Source: a virus
Lineage: Duplodnaviria > Heunggongvirae > Uroviricota > Caudoviricetes
Length of the DNA: 39,239 nucleotides
Direction: 5' to 3' (one strand)
IMG/VR virus record: IMGVR_UViG_2737471849_000004
Location: 1 to 39,239 of that record
The position numbers were made by a program, and so were the translations under genes. Below the pieces are notes generated by a model that made no database searches, was not told where the DNA came from, and worked only from the letters and a program-made list of their open reading frames with translations. Numbering within the stretch: the first letter of the stretch is position 1; every line of letters begins with the position of its first letter. Shown one piece after another: positions 5,109 through 37,129 of this stretch.

Positions 5109-5597
5109 TTATTTGATAAGAAGTGAAGGTTTCCCAACTTTGAGTTGAGCGCCGGGGATATTTATTCCTGCTTTTAGTTGGTGTTTGATTGCCAGTTTGT
5201 CGGCTTTAATTGTCGTTTCAAACTCAACGTATTCAGGAGGAAGGGCGCTTGAGTCGATGATTTCTACAGTTTCTGACGGTTTGCGGATTGTTACCTGGTG
5301 AATACCTGCTCTAATCTTTTTCTTGCCAACCATTTCAAGCGATGACGCTATATACGCCATAATGCTGCCAATCTTATTTTGAATTACTGCGGCTCGCTCA
5401 TTCAGTGACTTTGCCTCTTCCTTGAGGCGTTCAGCATAACCAGATTCATTTTTAATAATGGCAAGAAGTTGCTCTATTTTATCGGTAAATTCTCCTTCCA
5501 TGCCTTCTATTGTGTCAGCAATCATCTCTGGTTCTAAATCTGAATCCATCAATTTTGCGTATTCATTGGCAATTTCATACAGTTTGCTCACTGGCAA
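5109..5597 (-). CDS. Siphovirus Gp157-like protein (RecT-associated)
   Basis: 162 aa immediately downstream of RecT and overlapping it; composition and position typical of Gp157-family partners. Confidence 0.5.
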   Translation of the reverse strand: MPVSKLYEIANEYAKLMDSDLEPEMIADTIEGMEGEFTDKIEQLLAIIKNESGYAERLKEEAKSLNERAAVIQNKIGSIMAYIASSLEMVGKKKIRAGIHQVTIRKPSETVEIIDSSALPPEYVEFETTIKADKLAIKHQLKAGINIPGAQLKVGKPSLLIK

Positions 5598-6486
5598 CCT
5601 CCAGTTTCGCTTTGCATTCTATGTAAATGGCTTGTACGTTCTGCTGCAATTTCATTCCAGATGTCAGGCGATATGCTTCTGCAAAATATCGCTTCAAATC
5701 ATCCATGTTTTCTGCCTGAGCCATTTCATCGCAAAGAAGTTGTGCTTTATCCATTATTTCCTGCTGGCGTTTCCGTTCATCTTCGCGGATATCTTCCTCT
5801 GATTTGTGCGGCATAACTGGTTCGGTCCACACGCCTTCTTCTTCGTTTAGTACGTGAATAGCACTATCAAGGCGTGATGCCTTAGGCCAATACTTGCTTG
5901 CACGCTTTACGACCGTCTTTCGCGCCATCTCATTCCAGTGATTTACCCATGGTCCTTTATCGCTGAATGCTGCCTTGCTTGTTTTCCTTACAGCCTCAAT
6001 TTCAGCCAGACTCATCTCTTCCGTTAGATAATCACCTGCTGGCGTCTTAACTGTGCAGTAAACGCCAACGATATCACCACGGTCACCGAAGGCGTTGTAT
6101 TTATGGGTTGGTGCTTTATCAAGCCCGTTTGACTCATAGGTATCGTTAGCATGAACAAGTTTTGCCTGACCCCATGAGATAACACCAGACTCCATTGCAA
6201 TATGGAGCAATCCCATATAGCTGATATCAAGGCACACCATGCCGTCGCGAGGAACCAGATAAGCCAGTTTGCTGGCCGGGTTTAAGGTGATGCCGATCGC
6301 CGCAACATTGATGATGGCGTTCTGTGCGCTGGTTGGATTTGCCAGTGCTGTTTTAGCCAGGTAATCGTTTTTCTGGAAATACTGAATTGCAAACTGGCTT
6401 TCCTTAGCCCATGTCACCGTCTGTTCAGTCAATGCTCCGCAGAATAACTGCTCCTGCTGTTTAACGAATTCAACGATATTGCTCAT
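5575..6486 (-). CDS. recT: RecT-family single-strand annealing recombinase
   Basis: 303 aa; RecT-like core (LAYLVPRDGMVCLDISYMGL...GDIVGVYCTVKT...WPKASRL). Confidence 0.85.
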   Translation of the reverse strand: MSNIVEFVKQQEQLFCGALTEQTVTWAKESQFAIQYFQKNDYLAKTALANPTSAQNAIINVAAIGITLNPASKLAYLVPRDGMVCLDISYMGLLHIAMESGVISWGQAKLVHANDTYESNGLDKAPTHKYNAFGDRGDIVGVYCTVKTPAGDYLTEEMSLAEIEAVRKTSKAAFSDKGPWVNHWNEMARKTVVKRASKYWPKASRLDSAIHVLNEEEGVWTEPVMPHKSEEDIREDERKRQQEIMDKAQLLCDEMAQAENMDDLKRYFAEAYRLTSGMKLQQNVQAIYIECKAKLEVASEQTV

Positions 6487-7633: not shown

Positions 7634-7960
7634 TCAAATAAGTGGTTTGCTGCCTAATTTCATTTTCTGGCGACCAACACAAGTCACACCCATTTCACTG
7701 CGTGGCTTGCTGTACCATGTGCGCTGATTCTTGCGTTCAATACGTTGCAGGCTGCTTTCAATCTGTTCGTGGTATTCAGCCAGCACTGTAAGGTCTATCG
7801 GATTCAGTGCGCTTTCTACTCGTGATTTCGGTTTGCGATTCAGCGAGAGAATAGGGCGGTTAACTGGTTTTGCGCTTACCCCAACCAACAGGGGATTTGC
7901 TGCTTTCCATTGAGCCTGTTTCTCTGCGCGACGTTCGCGGCGGCGTGTTTGTGCATCCAT
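7634..7960 (-). CDS. N: Antitermination protein N (lambda-type)
   Basis: From MDAQTRRRERRAEKQAQWKAANPLLVGVSAKPVNRPILSLNRKPKSRVESALNPIDLTVLAEYH...; matches lambda N including the arginine-rich motif. Confidence 0.9.
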   Translation of the reverse strand: MDAQTRRRERRAEKQAQWKAANPLLVGVSAKPVNRPILSLNRKPKSRVESALNPIDLTVLAEYHEQIESSLQRIERKNQRTWYSKPRSEMGVTCVGRQKMKLGSKPLI

Positions 7961-8132
7961 CTGGATTCTCCTGTCAGTTAGCTTTGGTGGTGTGGTAGGT
8001 GGGAGACCCATTTCGACCTGCTTCGGCCGACTTCAATTCGGCAATAGTTCCGCAGGCCTCGCCGCTTTACGTGCGACATATTCCCATCCATGAACCCTTC
8101 ACCACACCCCAAAGCCTTCTGCTTTGAATGCT

Positions 8133-8162
8133 GCCCTTCTTCAGGGCTTAATTTTTAAGAGC
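8133..8162 (-). promoter_or_regulatory. nutL (boxB hairpin and boxA-like element)
   Basis: gcccttcttcagggc is the reverse complement of lambda boxB; ttaagagca next to it is a near match to boxA. Confidence 0.75.
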
Positions 8163-8199
8163 ACCACCTTCATGGTGGTCAGTGCGTCCTGCTGATGGC

Positions 8200-8260
8200 T
8201 TAAAATATACCTACAGGTAAAACATCTGTCTATACCTGTAGGTAAATAAAATTGATGTGA
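8200..8260 (-). promoter_or_regulatory. PL promoter with OL operators
   Basis: Palindromic 12-mers tacctacaggta (8208..8219) and tacctgtaggta (8233..8244) overlap a leftward -35 TAGACA / -10 TATATT pair. Confidence 0.55.
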
Positions 8261-8304
8261 GAGTTTACCTGCTTGAATTTTCAGGTAATTAATTTTTTGG
8301 ATTG

Positions 8305-8331
8305 ATATAAAAAAGCCCGCTTTGCGGGCTG
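8305..8331 (-). terminator. Intrinsic terminator ending the cI operon
   Basis: Minus-strand hairpin agcccgcaaagcgggct followed by a T-run. Confidence 0.7.
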
Positions 8332-8341
8332 AAAGGAGATG

Positions 8342-8656
8342 TCAGAAGCTATTTGGATTGCTTGGCCATTGCGGCAATTTTGATTCTACTGGGGTGTGTT
8401 TGGGTTTGAGTCCGTTTAAGTAGTCAAGGCGCTCAATGGCGCATTTATACATAGCAATCTGCTCTGATGACATGTCGTCGTATGACATGCCTTTGAACTT
8501 TTTAATTATTGATTCTGCCTCATGTATAAGATGCTTCTTCCTCATGAGTTCAGCTGTATGCTTAGAGCTTACAGGAGATAACTTTGCCCATATGAAGCAG
8601 ATGATTACAACAGCGACTACTATGCCGGGTATAAACATTTGCTGCTTTATCCTCAA
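8342..8656 (-). CDS. Small membrane-anchored protein co-transcribed with cI (candidate exclusion/abortive-infection factor)
   Basis: 104 aa; start overlaps the cI stop; N-terminal TM helix FIPGIVVAVVIICFIWA then a charged soluble domain; followed by a terminator. Confidence 0.6.
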   Translation of the reverse strand: MRIKQQMFIPGIVVAVVIICFIWAKLSPVSSKHTAELMRKKHLIHEAESIIKKFKGMSYDDMSSEQIAMYKCAIERLDYLNGLKPKHTPVESKLPQWPSNPNSF

Positions 8657-9339
8657 ACTTTTGGCAGATCGTCCTGGTCTACGTACCTGGTGTGTTTCAC
8701 AATAGCTGAAACAAAATGCATTTTATCAACTTCTTCAACAGGAAGAGTGATTGGGCGGTGATCACTGTTTATGCTACTAAACTGATAATCACCGTCTCTT
8801 GTTTTGTTCATGATCTTTATCATGTTGTGACCGTCTTTGGTCCTTACAAAGACTTCATCACCTGGATGTACTGGCGTATTTGGTTCAATAACAACATATT
8901 CTCCTGACTGAATCCTTGGCCACATGCTGTCACCCTTAACCTTCAGACCGTAAGCATCTTTATCGCCGCTGTAGATGCTTAACCAACCGGATCTGAATTC
9001 AATCATATCCACTGAGCCATCAACTCCCAAAACGGCTTCACCAATTACCGGAACAAAACCCGCACGAACGTTACCCGCAAACTCAAGATGGTCCGTAGCT
9101 CCAGCTTTACCATCTGCAAGCATGTCCATCCATCCGCGTGGGAGATTAAAAGATTTTTCAATTAGTTCCATCATATCGTCAGCAATGCGTTTTTTTCCGC
9201 TTTTTCCTTCCGGATACAGCATTCTGGAAACGTATGATGGTTCCCTTTCTATTCGACGAGCCAACTCTGAGGCCTTTCCATTACAGAATCGGTCTCTTAT
9301 CTCTATCAGCCTTAGTCGTCTTTGTTCGTATTTATCCAT
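8653..9339 (-). CDS. cI: CI-type prophage repressor (HTH + S24 LexA-like peptidase domain)
   Basis: 228 aa; C-terminal GDSMWPRI...VVIEP and a conserved Lys typical of S24 autocleavage domains; flanked by operators. Confidence 0.85.
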   Translation of the reverse strand: MDKYEQRRLRLIEIRDRFCNGKASELARRIEREPSYVSRMLYPEGKSGKKRIADDMMELIEKSFNLPRGWMDMLADGKAGATDHLEFAGNVRAGFVPVIGEAVLGVDGSVDMIEFRSGWLSIYSGDKDAYGLKVKGDSMWPRIQSGEYVVIEPNTPVHPGDEVFVRTKDGHNMIKIMNKTRDGDYQFSSINSDHRPITLPVEEVDKMHFVSAIVKHTRYVDQDDLPKV

Positions 9340-9354
9340 GATTTAATTCTATCT

Positions 9355-9415
9355 TTGATTACCTGCCGGTAAATAACCTATGGGTATTGATTTGCTTTTT
9401 ACCTACAGGTAAACT
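9355..9415 (+). promoter_or_regulatory. OR operators with PR (and divergent PRM)
   Basis: tacctgccggta (9360..9371) and tacctacaggta (9400..9411) share the half-site of the OL operators; -35 TTGATT / -10 TAAACT upstream of cro. Confidence 0.55.
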
Positions 9416-9447
9416 CATCTTATTCAACAACGGGAAGGAGATAGCAA

Positions 9448-9678
9448 ATGGAAGAACTCCGCTTGTATCTGAACTCCCTTTCACTGGAAGAGCAGAGAGA
9501 ATTTGCCACCAAGTGCGGAACTTCTATCGGCTATTTGAGGAAAGCACTTAGCCGTAATCATGAATTGGGCGCAGCACTTTGTGTTCTGATTGAGAAGTTC
9601 AGCAATGGTGAAGTGACTCGCAAAGACCTTCATCCGGTTGATTGGGAAAGCATCTGGCCTGAATTAATGGCCGCTTAA
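9448..9678 (+). CDS. cro: Cro-like early repressor
   Basis: 76 aa, first gene rightward from PR; HTH-like segment ATKCGTSIGYLRKALS. Confidence 0.6.
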   Translation: MEELRLYLNSLSLEEQREFATKCGTSIGYLRKALSRNHELGAALCVLIEKFSNGEVTRKDLHPVDWESIWPELMAA

Positions 9679-9686
9679 GTTATTAA

Positions 9687-9718
9687 CGCTCTTACACATC
9701 CCAGCCCTGAAAAAGGGC
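9687..9718 (+). promoter_or_regulatory. nutR (boxA cgctcttac, boxB gccctgaaaaagggc)
   Basis: Matches lambda nutR boxA and boxB as I recall them; lambda-like tR1 region follows. Confidence 0.8.
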
Positions 9719-16007: not shown

Positions 16008-16082
16008 GGGTCAGTCGTATAAAGGTCATTACGGAAGGCTGTTAACCTTCTTATCGTGGTTCGAGTCCACGCTGTCCCGCCA
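16008..16082 (+). tRNA. tRNA-like gene, anticodon GUU (Asn), CCA encoded
   Basis: Manual cloverleaf: acceptor gggtcag/ctgtccc with one mismatch, anticodon stem gaagg/ccttc, loop ctGTTaa, T-arm cgtgg-ttcgagt-ccacg, 3' GCCA. Confidence 0.55.
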
Positions 16083-16087
16083 AACAT

Positions 16088-16163
16088 GCTGGTTTAGCTC
16101 CAATGGTAGAGCAGTCGCCTTGTAAGCGAATGGGTAGCGGTTCAAGTCCGTTAACCAGCACCA
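16088..16163 (+). tRNA. tRNA-like gene, anticodon UGU (Thr), CCA encoded
   Basis: Manual cloverleaf: acceptor gctggtt/aaccagc perfect, D-arm gctc...gagc, loop ctTGTaa, T-loop ttcaagt, 3' ACCA. Confidence 0.6.
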
Positions 16164-17623: not shown

Positions 17624-18062
17624 TAGCGATAATTCTACTCATCATCCTTCACATCTGGCTCTGTAGACAGGGTGGTGATCACTTCTGGAGTGAATCCAGA
17701 TTAAACATCTCATTGCTGATGCTTGAAGTTAAGCATATGGCGCGCGGCAAGGGGCTGCGTTGAGATAAGAGCCAGTTCATTACAAAGCCTATCTACGGGT
17801 GGGCTTGATAATGAAACCGGAATTTATTCTGGGTAACCAGTTACGGCAGTACAGCGAAACAACCCAAGCCAGAAAGTGGGGAAATAACACTGGCAGCCAC
17901 TGAAAGATGAACCTCCAGCCTTATGGCAAAAAAGATTCTTTGTGGTGGCGGACTGATGGAAAGACATCGGATAGAATAAAACAGTGGCTAGGGTAGCTGC
18001 CGAAAAGCGGAATCGTCACCGCCTGCCACTGAATCTATGACGAACAACTAGACGAGGTTGTG

Positions 18063-29653: not shown

Positions 29654-30346
29654 ATGTTATATGCATTTAAGCTGGGCAGAAAACTGCGCGGCGAGGAACC
29701 TTATTACCCTGAAAAAGGCGGGAAAGGTGGCAGTTCTGATAAAAGCGCAAAGTATGCAGCAGAAGCTCAGAAGTATGCCGCAGACCTGCAAAATCAGCAG
29801 TGGCAGACGATCATGAAAAACCTTGCTCCGTTCACGCCGCTTGCGGAGCAGTATGTTAACCAGCTTCAGAATCTTTCCAGTTTAGAAGGACAGGGGCAGG
29901 CACTTAATCAGTATTACAACTCTCAGCAGTATAAAGACCTTGCAGGTCAGGCGCGTTACCAGAGTCTTGCTGCTGCGGAGGCGACGGGTGGACTTGGTTC
30001 GACAGCCACAAGCAATCAACTGGCTACGATCGCGCCGACACTCGGTCAGTCTTGGTTATCAAACCAGATGAGCAATTACAACAATCTGGCAAACGTTGGG
30101 CTTGGTGCGCTGCAAGGTCAGGCAAACGCCGGGCAGACGTACGCCAACAACATGAGCAGCATTGCACAGCAAAGCGCAGCACTTGCCGCTGCTAATGCCA
30201 ATAAACCATCAAGTCTTCAGACTGCAATTAGCGGTGGCACGTCTGGTGCGATTGCCGGTGCAGGTCTTGCCAGCCTTTTGGGAACATCAACGCCTTGGGG
30301 CGCTGGCATTGGTGCTGGTATCGGATTGCTTGGCTCGTTGTTTTAA
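29654..30346 (+). CDS. Ejection protein (P22 gp7-like)
   Basis: 230 aa; Q/A/G-rich with C-terminal glycine-rich hydrophobic tail; canonical position. Confidence 0.65.
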   Translation: MLYAFKLGRKLRGEEPYYPEKGGKGGSSDKSAKYAAEAQKYAADLQNQQWQTIMKNLAPFTPLAEQYVNQLQNLSSLEGQGQALNQYYNSQQYKDLAGQARYQSLAAAEATGGLGSTATSNQLATIAPTLGQSWLSNQMSNYNNLANVGLGALQGQANAGQTYANNMSSIAQQSAALAAANANKPSSLQTAISGGTSGAIAGAGLASLLGTSTPWGAGIGAGIGLLGSLF

Positions 30347-30355
30347 GGGGTAATC

Positions 30356-31813
30356 ATGGCTACTTGGCAAGGAACAAACGGCGGATTGTTGGCTGGTATC
30401 GGCGGCGTCAACTCAAACGCTCCGAGCGTAAATGACATCGGCAATACGCTTCAGATTATCAGGCAGAACAATGATATTGAGCGTTCAGGCGCTAACAATG
30501 TTGGGCTGACTGCTTTGCAAGGCCTTTCAGGTATTGCTGGGGTGTTTCAGCAGGAAAAGCAGGCTCAGCGGCAGAAAGAATTTCAGCAGGCATACGCTAA
30601 TGCTTATGCGTCTGGTGATCGCGGTGCTTTGCGTCAGTTGGCTACTCAATATCCAGACCAGATTGAATCCGTTCGTAAAGGCATGGGATTCATTGATGAA
30701 GAGCAGCGTAATTCTATCGGCACCTTAGCGGCTGGCGCACGCCTTGCGTCATCGTCTCCAGAAGCAATGCAATCATGGCTGCAAAACAACGCCAAGGAAC
30801 TGACTCGCGTCGGTGTTGACCCTAACAGCGTTGCTCAGATGTATCAGCAGAATCCTTCAGGATTTGGTGAGTTTGTTGATCACCTTGGAATGGCCGCGCT
30901 TGGTCCGATTGATTACTTCAATGTTCAGGACAAGATGGCTGGTCGTGAAATTGACCGAGGCGGGCTGGCAGAGACAATCCGCAGCAATCAGGCCAGCGAA
31001 GCACTTCAGGCGAGAGGGCAGGATATTAGCCGAGCAAATGCGTTAACGTCAGCATATGCACCAACAGCAGCAATGCAGAATTACAATCAGTACGCGCAAA
31101 TGTTAAAGGTGGATCCAGAGGGGGCGGCGGCATTTGCGGCAGCGGCTGGAATTAATACAAACGCCAAAAAATTAATGAGTGTTAGAGAAAACGATGATGG
31201 CACTGTCACAAAATACTACACAGACGGAAGTGAAGAGCAGGGAAAACTAAACCAGCCAATATCTGGAGATGGGTTTCGTCCAATAGCTTTGCCAACAGCC
31301 CAAAAGATCATGGAAAAGTCGCCAGAAGGGGCTAAAAAAGCTGCTGGATTTGCATACAGGGTTAGGGATGCTCTTGATTCAATGGATACACTGAAAGACC
31401 AGCTTAGCCCACAGCGAGTGGCGGTCATTAATAATGCTTTGGGTAATGGGACGCTGGCTAACTTAACGCTCAGCCCAACAGAGCAGCAATACGTTGTTAA
31501 TGCTAATGACGCAATAATGGCAATACTCCGTCAGGAAACAGGGGCAGCTATCGTACCTGCTGAAATGTCAAAATATTATCAAATGTATTTCCCTCAGCCT
31601 GGCGACTCCACAAAAACCATTGATACCAAGCGCCGGAAGATGGAAAACCAGTTCAATTCGCTGAAAGCTGCTTCTGGTCGAGCTTATGATGCTTTGCGGG
31701 TTATTTCAGCAGTTGACAGAGGAACTTCTTCTTCGTCGCAGACATTGCCGCAATCTGAGCAGGTATCACAGCCAGCAGCCAGCAGTAACTTTTCTTCACT
31801 ATGGGGTGATTAA
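30356..31813 (+). CDS. Ejection protein (P22 gp20-like)
   Basis: 485 aa at the gp20 position. Confidence 0.65.
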
Positions 31814-33996
31814 TGGCTAAAGCATGGAAAGATGTTATCGCCTCTCCACAGTATCAGGCGTTAGCACCAGAACAAAAAGCGCAGGCTCAGGAGCAATACT
31901 TCAATGAAGTCGTTGCCCCGCAAGCCGGAGAAAATGCAGAGCAGGCAAAACAAGCGTTTTACTCTGCTTACCCTAGAGGTCTGCTAGAGAAGGGTAATAT
32001 TGACATTCACAATCGGCCTGTTGTTAAAAACTCTGATGGCAGCATTAGCACTGTGCGGAGCATGTCTACCAATATAGATGGTAGAGAGGTGCTGATTCCT
32101 ACCGTTAGTGATGATGGTCGCATTATGTCTGATGATGAAGCTATTGATAACTTCATGAGGACGGGAAAGCATCTTGGTATGTTCGACAATCCTGACGATG
32201 CCACTGCATATGCGGAGAGTCTGCACAACCAGCAAGCTGATGAATACCTCCCTAGGAAGAATCAAGCTACACAACAGCCTGTACAGCAAAGTACACAGGC
32301 AGCGCCACAGCAGCAAGGAGGTTTCATTTCCGACCTTGGCAATGCCGCGGCTGAAACTGGTCGCGGACTGGTGCAGGCTGGTCGTGGTCTGGTAAACATA
32401 CCATTTGACGTATTGCAGGGTGGTGCAAGTCTGATTAATGCAATCAGTCAGGGGCTTGGTGGGCCAAAAGTATTGGATGATGTCTATCGTCCTGTCGATC
32501 GACCGACAGACCCTTACGCGCAAGCCGGTGAAACAATTGGTGGGTATTTAGTTCCAGGAGTTGGAACGGCAGGAAGCATGGCTATTGGATCGCTGGCAGA
32601 GGCCGCAAATCAGAAAGGCGATTTCGCACAAAATGCAGCTAAAAATGCCGGAGTTAACCTTGCCGCTCAGGGTGTTCTTTCCGCAGCTGCAAAGGGAATA
32701 GGGCGTGGAATAACGGCTATAAAAGGTGATATTGCGCCAGAAGTGGCGAAGAAAATTGCCACATCAGAATCGATGGGCGTGACACCAATGACATCTGATG
32801 TTATCCCGCCGAAAAATGCTTTCACTCGCGGCCTTACTCAGGATGCCGAGGGGGCTTTGCTCGGGACGGGTTCAAAGCGAGCAGAGCAATATGCAACGCG
32901 GAGTAAGCTGGTAAGCAATTATTTTGACCGTTTTGGTGAGTACAACCCTGATGATGTGGTGAAATCTCTGACCACCACGTTAAGGGGGCGGAAGGATGCC
33001 GCTGGCGCTGTTATCAATGACGTCACCAATAAAATGGGTAATGCCGCAGTTGATACCACAAATACCATGAATGCTCTGAATACAGCGATCGCAAGACAGG
33101 AACGGCTTGGGACGTCTGCCAATCAAAGCCTGCTTACATCCTTGCGTAACCTACGTGAAGAATTAGCAAACCCTGCAACTGATTTGGATGTTACGTTTGA
33201 TCTCTTGCGTCAGCACAGAACAGCATTTAGATCTAATGTTCAGGGAGATGCTATGGTCTTCCCCAACCAGGCAAAAGCAGCTACCAATATGGTAGAGAAT
33301 GCAATGTCAAAAGACCTTCGTAACGCAGTTGCTAAAAACCTCGGTGCATCAGACGCAGCAAAATACCTTAAAGCAAATTCCGATTATGCAAACGTTTATA
33401 ATAAGGTGCTTAATAAAAACATTGCCAACAAGCTCAACAAGGCAAGCAGTGAAGCCAGTCCTGAACTTATAAATACCGTTGTATTAAGCAGAAAACCATC
33501 TGACGTGAAACGAATCTGGAGCGCACTGGATGATAAGGGGAAAGATGCTATGCGTGCAGCTTACGTCAGCAAAATAGCGGAAAAGGCCGGGGACTCTCCA
33601 GCCAAGTTCATCACTGAAGTTAATAAGCTGAAATCTCAGTCAGGCGGTGAAATTTACAACACTATTTTTTCTGGAAAGCACATGAAAGAGCTTGATGCTC
33701 TTCATGAAGTTCTACAGCAAACAGCAAGGTCAGACACCGCAAATGTAGTAACTCAGACGGGGCAATCGCAAGCCAACAGGATAAGGACGATTGGCGCAAC
33801 TGCGACCCTTGGCGTATCAATGGGGCTTGAGGCTGGTTTTGGTGCAATGATGCGCTTGTATGAGTCCAAAGCAGCAAGGAATATGCTTCTTCGTTTGGCA
33901 AACACCAAAGCAGGAACACCAGCCTATGAAAGAGCGATAAATAACGCTGCGAATGCCATCAGACCGCTGTTTGCTACTGAGGCAACACAGCAGTAA
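31813..33996 (+). CDS. Ejection protein (P22 gp16-like), extended
   Basis: 727 aa at the gp16 position; long Ala/Gly-rich central region. Confidence 0.65.
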
Positions 33997-34020: not shown

Positions 34021-34410
34021 CTAACATTTTCTTTTTACTTTTCCAACAAAAGCTTTGGTTGAATCCATATTTCCATAACCGGAAATGGTTTTTGACATTA
34101 AAACTGTTCCAGTAGGATGTATTACCCATGAGTCGATAACGCGTTGAGTTTCGCCATTCGCGCCGATTCCTATGATGGAGTTTTTAGACAATGCTTTGTA
34201 AGCCATGCCGCCCGCATCTGTCCCAGAATATGTGATGCTGGCATCTTCACCGTTTGTCTTAATGATGAATGTTCCACTAAAACCATCTTCTTCCGGATGG
34301 AAATTATTTCGTTCTGAATAGCTTATTCCGCGCATATCTCCAACGACCCAGCACTCTGCTGTAGCCCCAAAAGATATGAATAAGAACATAGCAGTAAGAA
34401 ATTGCTTCAC
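34021..34410 (-). CDS. Secreted (periplasmic) protein of unknown function, accessory
   Basis: GTG start 6 nt after AAGGAGG; signal peptide MKQFLTAMFLFISFGATA then about 110-aa beta-rich domain with Cys near both ends. Confidence 0.6.
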   Translation of the reverse strand: MKQFLTAMFLFISFGATAECWVVGDMRGISYSERNNFHPEEDGFSGTFIIKTNGEDASITYSGTDAGGMAYKALSKNSIIGIGANGETQRVIDSWVIHPTGTVLMSKTISGYGNMDSTKAFVGKVKRKC

Positions 34411-34440
34411 ACCAACCTCCTTAGTTTTTCGCAGGATACC

Positions 34441-34806
34441 ATGAAAAAAGTTAACATTGGAAACGTACCAAAGATGCTCGTTCCGCTCTTTGAGAGCGGT
34501 ACAATTGTGTTTTGTAGAGACTTTCCAGAATGGCAACGCCTGCATCAAAAACTTGGCGTTGACGTGCATGACTCGGACGCCAACGGAGCGTCTCATACAA
34601 TGAGTAGCGAGAATGGTGTTTTGCATGTGATAGGCGTGTTCAATGGCAAACTATCTACTATTGCCCATGAGTGCGCTCACATGGCATTCGATATCTGCTC
34701 AAGGGTAGGTGTTGATGTTGAACCAGGAAGAGCCAACGAGACTTACTGCTACTTAATGAGCAGGCTTGTTGAGTTCTGCGAGCGACATATCAAAAAGCCG
34801 GAGTGA
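34441..34806 (+). CDS. HExxH-motif small protein (putative zinc-dependent metallopeptidase-like), accessory
   Basis: About 121 aa from MKKVNIGNVPK...; contains TIAHECAHMAFD plus several Cys; divergent from the secreted-protein gene 30 bp away. Confidence 0.5.
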   Translation: MKKVNIGNVPKMLVPLFESGTIVFCRDFPEWQRLHQKLGVDVHDSDANGASHTMSSENGVLHVIGVFNGKLSTIAHECAHMAFDICSRVGVDVEPGRANETYCYLMSRLVEFCERHIKKPE

Positions 34807-34812
34807 CCCGGC
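34790..34812. terminator. Bidirectional intrinsic terminator
   Basis: Hairpin gccgg-agtgac-ccggc flanked by an A-run upstream and T-rich sequence downstream. Confidence 0.55.
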
Positions 34813-34819
34813 TTGATTA

Positions 34820-34999
34820 TTACTTTTTGCTGTCTGGAGTTCGCTTATCCAATACCCAGCCATGACCTGGCTTTGTTGTTGGCGGAAGCCTTTCGTTGTC
34901 CTTGACGGTGGCAAAATTATCTTTCTTACCTCCGCGCGGGCCAACTTCTTGGTATATTCCGCCGTTTTTTCCTGTGTTTTCACCTGGTTTTTTCGCCAT
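34820..34999 (-). CDS. Small hydrophilic Gly/Lys-rich protein (YjzC-like by recollection), moron
   Basis: 59 aa MAKKPGENTGKNGGIYQEVGPRGGKKDNFATVKDNERLPPTTKPGHGWVL...; GAGG upstream; bracketed by its own putative promoter and terminator. Confidence 0.5.
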   Translation of the reverse strand: MAKKPGENTGKNGGIYQEVGPRGGKKDNFATVKDNERLPPTTKPGHGWVLDKRTPDSKK

Positions 35000-35483: not shown

Positions 35484-35693
35484 TTACTCAGGGACGCGGA
35501 AGCTGTTGAGGTGGGATGCTAGGTCTCTATCGTTAAAATCAAGGCTGCTAATCATTTCATTGTAAATAGCGTTTTTATCTTCCATTGGCAGTCTTGAGTA
35601 AACCAGACACAGAGCATATTTCAGGGAGTTTAGCTCTTTCTCTAGCTCTTCCTTGCTTGATGTTTTTGACTTAATAAACTGTTTTTTATTCAT
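35484..35693 (-). CDS. Hypothetical protein translationally coupled to mnt (69 aa)
   Basis: ATG overlaps the mnt stop (ATGA); charged, helical composition. Confidence 0.45.
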   Translation of the reverse strand: MNKKQFIKSKTSSKEELEKELNSLKYALCLVYSRLPMEDKNAIYNEMISSLDFNDRDLASHLNSFRVPE

Positions 35694-35926
35694 TTTGCAT
35701 CCTTACCATACATGGTTTTCAGTGTTTCAATCAGCGCATCCCTGAATTTGTCAGCCTCTTTCTGAGCAAATTCATTGCTATTAAGCGATCTACCACAAAT
35801 AGCATCTTCGATAATCTGTATTATTTCAGCATTCATGGAACGCTTGTTATGTTGTGCCCTGGCTTTAACCTTTGCCTTTAACTCTTTGGAAATCCTGATA
35901 TTTATTTGCGGCTCTTCGCGTGACAT
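35690..35926 (-). CDS. mnt: Mnt-like ribbon-helix-helix repressor
   Basis: 78 aa; PQINIRISKELKAKVKARAQHNKRSMNAEIIQIIEDAI fits the Arc/Mnt RHH fold; divergent from arc-ant. Confidence 0.7.
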   Translation of the reverse strand: MSREEPQINIRISKELKAKVKARAQHNKRSMNAEIIQIIEDAICGRSLNSNEFAQKEADKFRDALIETLKTMYGKDAK

Positions 35927-36014
35927 ACCACCTCCATAGCATTTTGGTGATATTACTATTGCATCACTGCGACCACAATGGCATAACGGTTATACCAAAT
36001 TGATTGGAGGTAAT

Positions 36015-36188
36015 ATGATAGTCAAGTCAGACGCACCAAAGTACCCTTTGCGCATCCCATTAGAGGTTAAGTTAGCAATCGAGAAGTCAGCGAAAGAAAA
36101 TGGTCGCTCAATAAATACCGAGATGGTAATGCGGTTAGTGGATAGTTTAAGGCGGGATAGTTCTAAAGGTAATCTAGCAAAAAGTTGA
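36015..36188 (+). CDS. arc: Arc-like ribbon-helix-helix repressor
   Basis: 57 aa from the ATG after GGAGG; [35 protein letters not shown] resembles P22 Arc. Confidence 0.7.
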
Positions 36189-36250
36189 AGCCCCAACTGC
36201 GGGAACAGTCAGGGCTTCGGTATCAACAAATCGGATTAGGAAATATTGAC

Positions 36251-37129
36251 ATGAAAAGTATAGCAAAGGCACAAAACGATTTCACCATCTTCAAATTCGG
36301 CGACAGTGAAATCCGCGTCATCAACAAATGCGGTGAGCCGTGGTTTGTAGCAAAAGATGTTTGTGATGCTTTAACCCTGACTAACTCACGCAAGGCGCTT
36401 ACTGCACTTGATGACGATGAAAAGGGCGTAACTTTAAGTTACACCCTTGGTGGTGAGCAGAATCTAAGCATTGTTAGCGAATCAGGTATGTATACATTGG
36501 TTCTGCGCTGCCGCGATGCTGTCAATAAAGGTTCGGTCCCGCACAAATTCCGCAAGTGGGTAACAGCAGAAGTTCTACCTTCAATTCGCAAACATGGCGA
36601 GTATGTGAAAGGCAAGAAAACCACTGTTGAGGAAAGAACACCGCTACGCGATGCAGTAAACATGCTGGTAGGAAAGAAAGGACTTCGCTATGACGATGCA
36701 TACAATATGGTTCATCAGCGTTTTGGTATTGACAGCATTGATGAACTTTCAATTGAACAAATCCCGCAAGCAGTAGAGTACATCCACAGGGTAGTGCTTG
36801 AAGGCGAGTTAATCGGCAAACAAGAGAAGAAAGCAAACGAGCTTTCTGCAAAAGAAGCAAACAGCCTTGTATGGTTATGGGATTATGCCAACCGCTCACA
36901 GGCATTATTCCGCGAACTGTATCCGGCATTAAAACAAATTCAATCGAACTATTCCGGCAGATGCTACGACTACGGTCATGAATTCTCGTATGTTATCGGA
37001 ATGGCGAGAGACGTTTTAATCAATCACACACGAGATGTTGATATCAATGAGCCAGACGGACCAACGAATCTTTCCGCATGGATGAGACTTAAGAATAAAG
37101 AATTACCTCCTTCAGTACATAACTACTGA
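36251..37129 (+). CDS. ant: Antirepressor Ant (Bro-N domain)
   Basis: About 292 aa; N-terminal [28 protein letters not shown] is a Bro-N signature; downstream of arc. Confidence 0.8.

Follow-up and report, generated by a model that had tools for sequence, protein, structure and literature searches.

A small membrane protein gene behind the cI repressor of a P22-like prophage, from a family that also occupies the sieA position: a candidate for superinfection exclusion

The window analysed here (the whole stretch of DNA, 39,239 nucleotides) is a P22-like prophage whose late region matches Kapi1, CUS-3 and HK620. Behind its cI-type repressor gene it carries a gene for a small protein, which is very probably a real membrane protein expressed in lysogens. 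The family to which this protein belongs occupies two lysogen-expressed slots known for exclusion and abortive infection (Abi) genes, one in the repressor operon and one behind PsieA. As the best reading of its function we tentatively offer superinfection exclusion at the inner membrane. The chances that the protein has some anti-phage role appear evenly balanced; a SieA-like block of DNA entry specifically is possible, and we hold it with less confidence than an anti-phage role in general. Everything that points to a function comes from gene position and protein architecture; the assignment is plausible, and the homologs in the sieA slot strengthen it.

On the minus strand of the window, the genes and sites of the immunity region follow in the order OR, cI, small-protein ORF, terminator, OL/PL and N. 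The features are:

8342..8638, minus strand: small membrane protein gene, 98 aa plus stop, with the inferred true start at ATG 8638-8636
8639..8656, minus strand: six-codon in-frame stretch beginning at a TTG, from reading of the sequence; it holds GAGGA (8654-8650) and is absent from all homologs and from the diverged relative L023
8653..9339, minus strand: cI-type repressor, 228 aa; Peptidase_S24 C-terminal domain (Pfam PF00717, E=1.4e-17); phrog_4
8304..8330, minus strand: intrinsic terminator (AGCCCGC-AAA-GCGGGCU plus U-run), from terminator scan and RNA fold
8232..8204, minus strand: PL-like promoter, TAGACA-17-TATATT, overlapped by two OL operators
8208-8219 and 8233-8244, within 8204..8244: OL operators TACCTACAGGTA and TACCTGTAGGTA, respectively, of pattern TACC-N4-GGTA
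9346..9411: OR region with three operators (9360-9371, 9375-9386 and 9400-9411)
9373..9346, minus strand: PRM-like promoter, with the -10 element ending 7 nt ahead of the cI ATG
9448..9678, plus strand: Cro-like repressor, divergent from cI (phrog_35, E=7.5e-16; Cro in the PV340537 annotation)
7634..7960, minus strand: antiterminator N, first gene of the PL operon (Pfam N36, E=2.1e-26; mEp043 annotation)

A scan of the interval between cI and the ORF found neither a promoter-like nor a terminator-like site. Since the ORF lies between cI and the terminator with no such site intervening, it should be transcribed with the repressor in lysogens. Co-transcription of cI and the small-protein gene is well supported by this arrangement, and we infer that the small protein is expressed in lysogens. 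Transcription would start at PRM in lysogens and at PRE during establishment, and would end at the terminator before OL/PL. The stem of this terminator (8330..8314) contains six G-C pairs and is followed by a T-run; the hairpin (8330..8304) has a folding energy of -12.6 kcal/mol with a z-score of -3.4. A preliminary description of this DNA, made from the sequence, had noted a strong terminator just before OL/PL and had placed the ORF in the rex position, to be made together with the repressor; both points are supported. The same description regarded the cI-adjacent slot as a known site of exclusion and Abi genes. This agrees with the literature, in which the interval between cI and N is a conserved hotspot of prophage Abi and exclusion genes transcribed from the promoter of the repressor, rexAB and bstA among them (PMC8585504).

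The spacing between the PRM -10 element and the cI ATG implies that the cI mRNA may be leaderless, as in lambda. The operator pattern has 15 matches against 5.8 expected, five of which are clustered at OL and OR. To the left of OL/PL there is a nutL-like sequence, which is common to many lambdoid phages. An Rfam scan of positions 8100-8700 found no RNA family. Between the terminator and OL, at 8266-8287, the window also contains a long-spaced inverted repeat, TACCTG-N10-CAGGTA; a similar repeat, TTACCTG-N11-CGGGTAA, is found at the equivalent place in L023 (IMG/VR UViG_2627853705_000002, 5279-6294). The repeat in the window may belong to the termination signal, or it may be a third operator whose spacing is atypical.

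The gene is shorter than originally described. The mechanically called ORF (8342..8656, minus strand) encodes 104 aa and begins with a TTG (8656-8654) that overlaps the cI TGA (8655-8653) by two bases. The true start is almost certainly the ATG at 8638-8636, which lies 14 nt past the cI stop and gives a protein of 98 aa. Several lines of sequence evidence lead to this start. Firstly, positions 1-98 of the 98 positions in the PHROG 10450 profile correspond to residues 7-104 of the 104-aa ORF (E=9.8e-55). Secondly, every homolog recovered begins with M-[Y/F/W]-I, leading straight into the hydrophobic segment. Thirdly, the gene in L023, a diverged cI-linked relative, starts with a GTG 5 nt past the cI TAA, with GAGGA located within the end of cI; this junction has no in-frame N-terminal extension of the small-protein gene. 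Finally, codon 7 of the mechanical ORF reads ATG in the window, while mEp043 and PA45B have GTG there, which indicates that a start codon is kept at that site. The annotation of mEp043 has the corresponding 98-aa CDS.

A TTG start with coupling by overlap was considered and is rejected in view of the homolog N-termini, the coverage of PHROG 10450 and the L023 junction; the start/stop overlap is an artefact of mechanical ORF calling, and the six-codon stretch is probably untranslated. Thus, the TTG/TGA overlap given in the preliminary description does exist, but it does not involve the real start codon, and translational coupling through an overlapping start, which had been proposed from it, is not sustained. 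Translation would instead begin from the gene's own Shine-Dalgarno (GAGGA, 8654-8650) and ATG; re-initiation after translation of cI is possible. The spacing between Shine-Dalgarno and ATG is 11 nt and most alleles have a GTG start, which suggests low translation.

The immunity region (8100-9700) shows 98.9% DNA identity to phage mEp043, the only one among 50,697 phage records to share it. The homolog in mEp043, gene mEp043_049 (AFM76460.1; XSB40753.1), is deposited as a hypothetical protein and is 96.9% identical to the window protein; in both, the immunity region is the same and the neighbours are cI and N. The gene is consequently not new as a sequence, being known in databases as a hypothetical protein and forming PHROG 10450, and the word novel, as it was first applied to it, does not hold in the sense of unseen.

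Among 5,426 complete E. coli genomes, the ORF is present at 96% identity or more in 52, and exactly 52 carry the matching cI; ORF and cI type co-occur in 52 of 52 genomes, and do so in mEp043 as well. Six haplotypes were compared, and none of them has a disrupted ORF; relative to the two that diverge most, its dN/dS is 0.09 and 0.14, compared with 0.10 for cI. Absence or disruption of the ORF in close relatives, which the preliminary description would have counted against its proposal, was looked for: the ORF is present in all 52 genomes with this cI and intact in every haplotype examined, so that this check does not refute the proposal. The intact haplotypes, the cI-like dN/dS and the conserved homologs all show that the ORF is a genuine gene on which purifying selection acts.

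It is hardly credible that the ORF is non-functional, whether as a chance reading frame or as a decaying remnant that merely accompanies cI. PGAP gives it no annotation in nearly all of the 52 RefSeq genomes (an exception is K56-43-un, where it is WP_000470488.1) and its Shine-Dalgarno spacing is weak, as this explanation would have it. However, a dN/dS of about 0.1, like that of cI, the intact haplotypes, the match to PHROG 10450 and homologs at 30-43% identity with 12 invariant residues speak against it, and these conservation data effectively refute it.

The gene is carried mostly by human and animal E. coli isolates. Seven carriers of the cI-linked form were examined, and five are P22-like (the window, PA45B, K56-43-un, JNE131328 and STEC711). 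The other two are mEp043, which is a lambda/HK022-like siphovirus, and MB19, which has a contractile-tail gene set. Since the carriers differ in virion type, the cI-linked gene travels with the immunity module rather than with the virion. In E. coli MB19 (NZ_CP073981.1, 563000-571000), cI is 100% identical and occurs together with an HK97-type capsid and a tail-sheath gene; the cI-plus-ORF module thus occurs in a contractile-tail lambdoid mosaic as well.

L023 differs from these carriers in the degree of divergence. Its gene order is kept, but its cI is 84% identical to that of the window while its small protein is only 36% identical, and the divergence shifts sharply at the cI stop codon. Two explanations may be considered: either the small-protein gene is evolving much faster than cI, or alleles have been exchanged with a boundary at the cI stop. 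L023 has no G+C-rich terminator after the ORF; operator-like inverted repeats are found there instead.

All 14 family members that were aligned have one N-terminal hydrophobic segment (residues 1-18), with a mean Kyte-Doolittle value of 2.1-2.9; the next best hydrophobic window does not exceed 0.6 in any of them. None has a charge ahead of this segment, and each has one to four K/R just behind it. According to the positive-inside rule, the K/R behind the segment indicate that the rest of the protein should be cytoplasmic, and the predicted topology is N-out/C-in. In the window protein the remainder is about 80 aa long and charged (13 K/R, 9 D/E). An N-terminal transmembrane helix followed by a charged soluble domain had been recognised in the preliminary description, and the family alignment bears this out.

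An AF2 model built with the family alignment is moderately confident (pLDDT 76.5) and contains a long helix (5-48), a second helix (58-76) and an extended tail with an invariant W-P. On the basis of this model, we propose that the domain of about 80 aa is a helical hairpin. The gene product would thus be a 98-aa single-pass inner-membrane protein with a transmembrane helix at residues 1-18 and a helical domain that probably faces the cytoplasm. Twelve residues are invariant in the family alignment (S24, K34, I38, E40, A41, M56, Q60, C66, A67, L71, W91 and P92), and H27 and R70 are nearly so. A cleavable Sec signal peptide, with MRIKQQ as n-region and a cleavage site between IWA and K, was also considered and rejected; it needs the TTG extension, which the homologs do not have. 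Because the homologs lack a charged n-region, an uncleaved N-terminal anchor is preferred.

The small protein gave no meaningful match in Pfam, NCBIfam and PADLOC scans, consistent with the earlier remark that it has no recognisable motif. In PADLOC-DB v2, zero families were found at E <= 1 for the window protein and for its homolog from phage N7 alike. A profile search of PDB sequences returned designed helical filaments only (E >= 0.2), and a Foldseek search of the AF2 model against BFVD and PDB returned nothing at E <= 0.001 (best E about 0.65). A PHROG scan likewise gave no similarity to any family that carries an exclusion annotation.

When 1.84 billion representative proteins were searched exhaustively with HMMER, no more than a handful of relatives came up, with 30-43% identity and conserved motifs. 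A profile search for the family yielded 26 clusters, all of 97-114 aa after mis-called N-termini are discounted, and the family was met solely in prophage or phage contexts. Two proteins of about 1,300 aa (P0008 and P0010), each matched by HMMER in five to nine short stretches, were set aside as non-relatives, the matches being ascribed to the composition of K/E-rich helices. A single-protein scan of genome contigs gave only a spurious 17-residue match, within a 743-aa protein (L022).

The distant homologs share a second location. In phage N7 and in seven further P22-like loci (L004 and L006 to L011), the homolog adjoins gene 16 in convergent orientation. These slot homologs (30-37% identity, HMMER E <= 1e-8) lie between gene 16 and either the mnt/arc/ant region or the tailspike gene, and sieA of P22 has the identical position, convergent with gene 16. 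In L007, an E. coli prophage, pairwise blastn and alignment together with the P22 promoter annotation show that the homolog is preceded by about 470 bp with about 98% identity to what precedes sieA in P22, the annotated PsieA promoter and the AAGGAGGT ribosome-binding site among them. Both genes start with the same GTG, where the identity breaks off, and from exactly this point the homolog replaces the sieA ORF. In P22, sieA and 85 bp of upstream DNA are sufficient for exclusion (Leavitt et al., PMC10883804). The N7-type slot form is present in 57 of the 5,426 complete E. coli genomes. Carriers of the cI-linked form and of the slot form show zero overlap, which is uninformative at a frequency of about 1% each. 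In L005, a homolog of 114 aa (P0009, 5975-6319) lies beside a truncated gp20 and gp7, followed by T6SS Hcp and Tlde1 genes; what is left here seems to be a decayed prophage of the P22-like kind, bordering on a T6SS effector locus.

The window has a sieA slot of its own, with different contents:

29654-30346: gp7, upstream of gp16
30356-31813: gp20, upstream of gp16
31813..33996, plus strand: ejection protein gp16, from the ORF list and the late-region match to P22-like phages; it marks the sieA slot
34024..34410, minus strand: sieA-slot ORF of the window, 129 aa; phrog_2651; N-terminus like a signal peptide; unrelated to sieA and to the small-protein family
34411..34879, minus strand: leader with PsieA and the AAGGAGGT Shine-Dalgarno; identity to the sieA upstream region of P22 about 98%
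35690-37129: mnt/arc/sar/ant

Here too, a PsieA-like leader precedes the ORF, and the 129-aa reading frame takes over at the shared GTG. E. coli PA45B has the 129-aa protein too, with 97.5% identity. Behind one conserved promoter and leader, no fewer than three ORFs unrelated to one another (sieA, the small-protein family and the 129-aa ORF) have been swapped exactly at the start codon. These differing ORFs show that cassettes for envelope-directed proteins are exchanged at the sieA slot, which is therefore a place ready to be mined for further exclusion genes. The window prophage has its family member in the repressor operon and not in the sieA slot. In K56-43-un, the interval from mnt to gene 16 (L021, 3843-4882) contains two predicted lipoproteins (LLAGC and LLSGC lipoboxes) and no sieA.

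The slot homologs also bear on whether the small protein serves the phage itself, for instance by acting through membrane-bound host factors to keep lysogeny stable or to set the time of induction. Such phage-autonomous regulation is improbable. The invariable link to one cI family, seen in the 52 genomes and in L023, is what it would predict, as is co-expression with the repressor from PRM and PRE. The slot homologs, however, are located far from repressors, with many different immunity regions, and are served by an independent promoter; moreover, most lambdoid immunity regions do without the gene: among the phage records, only mEp043 shares the immunity region of the window.

P22 SieA is one of the closest known systems. 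Like the predicted location of the small protein, that of SieA is the inner membrane; it is likewise prophage-encoded, and homologs of the small protein hold its position. The two differ in size and topology: SieA is a multi-pass protein of 164 aa with several transmembrane segments, while the small protein has 98 aa and one transmembrane helix. They also differ in part in gene location, as sieA lies between genes 16 and 9 with its own PsieA, while the window copy adjoins cI and only the distant homologs are in the slot. Homology to SieA (types A-C) was rejected: BLASTP of the small protein against SieA gave no alignment at E <= 100, and the SieA motif FxRYPxEAxxFNK (PMC10883804) is absent from the family alignment. 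There is no resemblance in fold to SieA either.

Sie2009-type proteins of Tuc2009 and related lactococcal phages offer a parallel in architecture. By definition they are small, their N-terminus is hydrophobic and their genes lie in lysogeny modules; protection by Sie2009 has been reported against certain skunaviruses of lactococci (PMC7693887). The small protein shares the size, the hydrophobic N-terminus and the location; in contrast, the Sie2009-type hosts are Gram-positive and homology is not detectable (no PHROG match). The small protein would most plausibly work like these exclusion proteins. Since its family sits in two slots whose best-known occupants are anti-phage genes and its architecture is Sie2009-like, exclusion at the inner membrane is the best-supported reading of its function. 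The literature search found no study and no experimental or transcriptomic datum on the small-protein gene or any homolog.

Lambda rexAB is comparable in position, being downstream of cI in the immunity region with a terminator before OL/PL, and the two are presumably alike in transcription from PRM and PRE. RexAB is encoded by two genes, for the sensor RexA and the membrane protein RexB, while the window has a single gene. RexB is a multi-pass protein. Pfam and PHROG scans of the small protein at E <= 1 gave no match to a RexA or RexB family. In the Salmonella prophage BTP1, which is P22-like, the gene that directly follows cI encodes BstA, and its expression in lysogeny is high (PMC8585504). 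The small-protein gene shares this position; however, BstA has the aba self-immunity element, and the 98-aa small protein has no PADLOC or Pfam match to it.

These comparisons raise the question of whether the small protein is an Abi effector of the Rex type. Its cytoplasmic domain would sense infection and oligomerise, the membrane potential would collapse, and the lysogen would die or arrest before phage release. We consider this rather unlikely. Lambda rexAB and BTP1 bstA, which share the slot, are both Abi systems (PMC8585504); the protein is small and single-pass with a helical domain predicted to be cytoplasmic, and invariant K34, E40 and Q60 together with the nearly invariant R70 could form a sensing surface. 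It has, however, no similarity to RexA, RexB, BstA or PADLOC models, and the gene is single, with no partner sensor. Its homologs replace sieA, which is an entry blocker and not an Abi gene, and intact copies in 52 and 57 genomes give no sign of toxicity.

Somewhat less unlikely than a Rex-type effector is a lysogenic-conversion factor unrelated to defence, which would modulate a protein in the inner membrane of the host (sensor kinase, transporter, or a protease such as FtsH/HflKC) and so alter host physiology, stress tolerance or virulence. Lysogen-expressed slots also hold morons that have no part in defence: lysogen transcriptomes of E. coli LF82 detected 30 moron genes, more than one third of them of unknown function (10.1101/2022.10.28.514194). 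The predominance of human and animal isolates among the carriers is compatible with a conversion factor, and a domain facing the cytoplasm is suited to binding a host membrane protein. Both occupied slots, however, have anti-phage genes as their best-known occupants, and the family was found in phage and prophage contexts only. In addition, the low conservation of the small protein relative to cI in L023 fits an arms race or cassette exchange better than the tuning of a host function.

Superinfection exclusion at the inner membrane remains the preferred reading. The small protein would be a prophage accessory (moron) protein that guards the lysogen against superinfecting phages, most likely by interfering with the DNA delivery of P22-like phages, as P22 SieA does, while being unrelated to SieA in sequence and topology. 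Against a SieA-like role, the slot also holds a secreted protein (window and PA45B) and lipoproteins (K56-43-un); because its cassettes differ in this way, occupancy of the slot does not prove a SieA-like function. Likewise, the cI-linked copies in the siphovirus mEp043 and in the tail-sheath prophage MB19 mean that the link to P22-like biology is not exclusive.

A more speculative proposal, and on balance a doubtful one, is that the family is a new, non-homologous group of single-pass inner-membrane exclusion proteins that substitute for SieA. They could act from the cytoplasmic side on the gp16/gp20 ejection-protein conduit of P22-like phages, or sense the conduit and trigger abortive infection, and would be deployed from the repressor operon or from the sieA slot. 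The protein is a candidate non-homologous replacement for SieA, and P22 assays already in use would suit it. Should it prove to exclude phages, it would represent a second, structurally unrelated answer to the problem that SieA solves; being much smaller, with 98 aa and one transmembrane helix, it could also be a tractable tool for studying the passage of P22-like ejection proteins through the inner membrane. The two forms together place the family in about 2% of complete E. coli genomes (52 cI-linked and 57 slot, of 5,426). RefSeq hardly ever carries an annotation for the cI-linked form, and it therefore escapes present surveys of prophage defence genes.

A number of RNA features were matched by Rfam elsewhere in the window. 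The sar antisense RNA of immI is found at 36183-36249 on the minus strand with 71.6 bits. There are also two tRNA genes and an int-alpA sRNA, the latter barely above its threshold (41.1 against 35.8 bits). The coordinates listed with the sar, tRNA and int-alpA matches are 36183-36249 (minus strand), 16008-16160 (plus strand) and 17981-18043 (plus strand).
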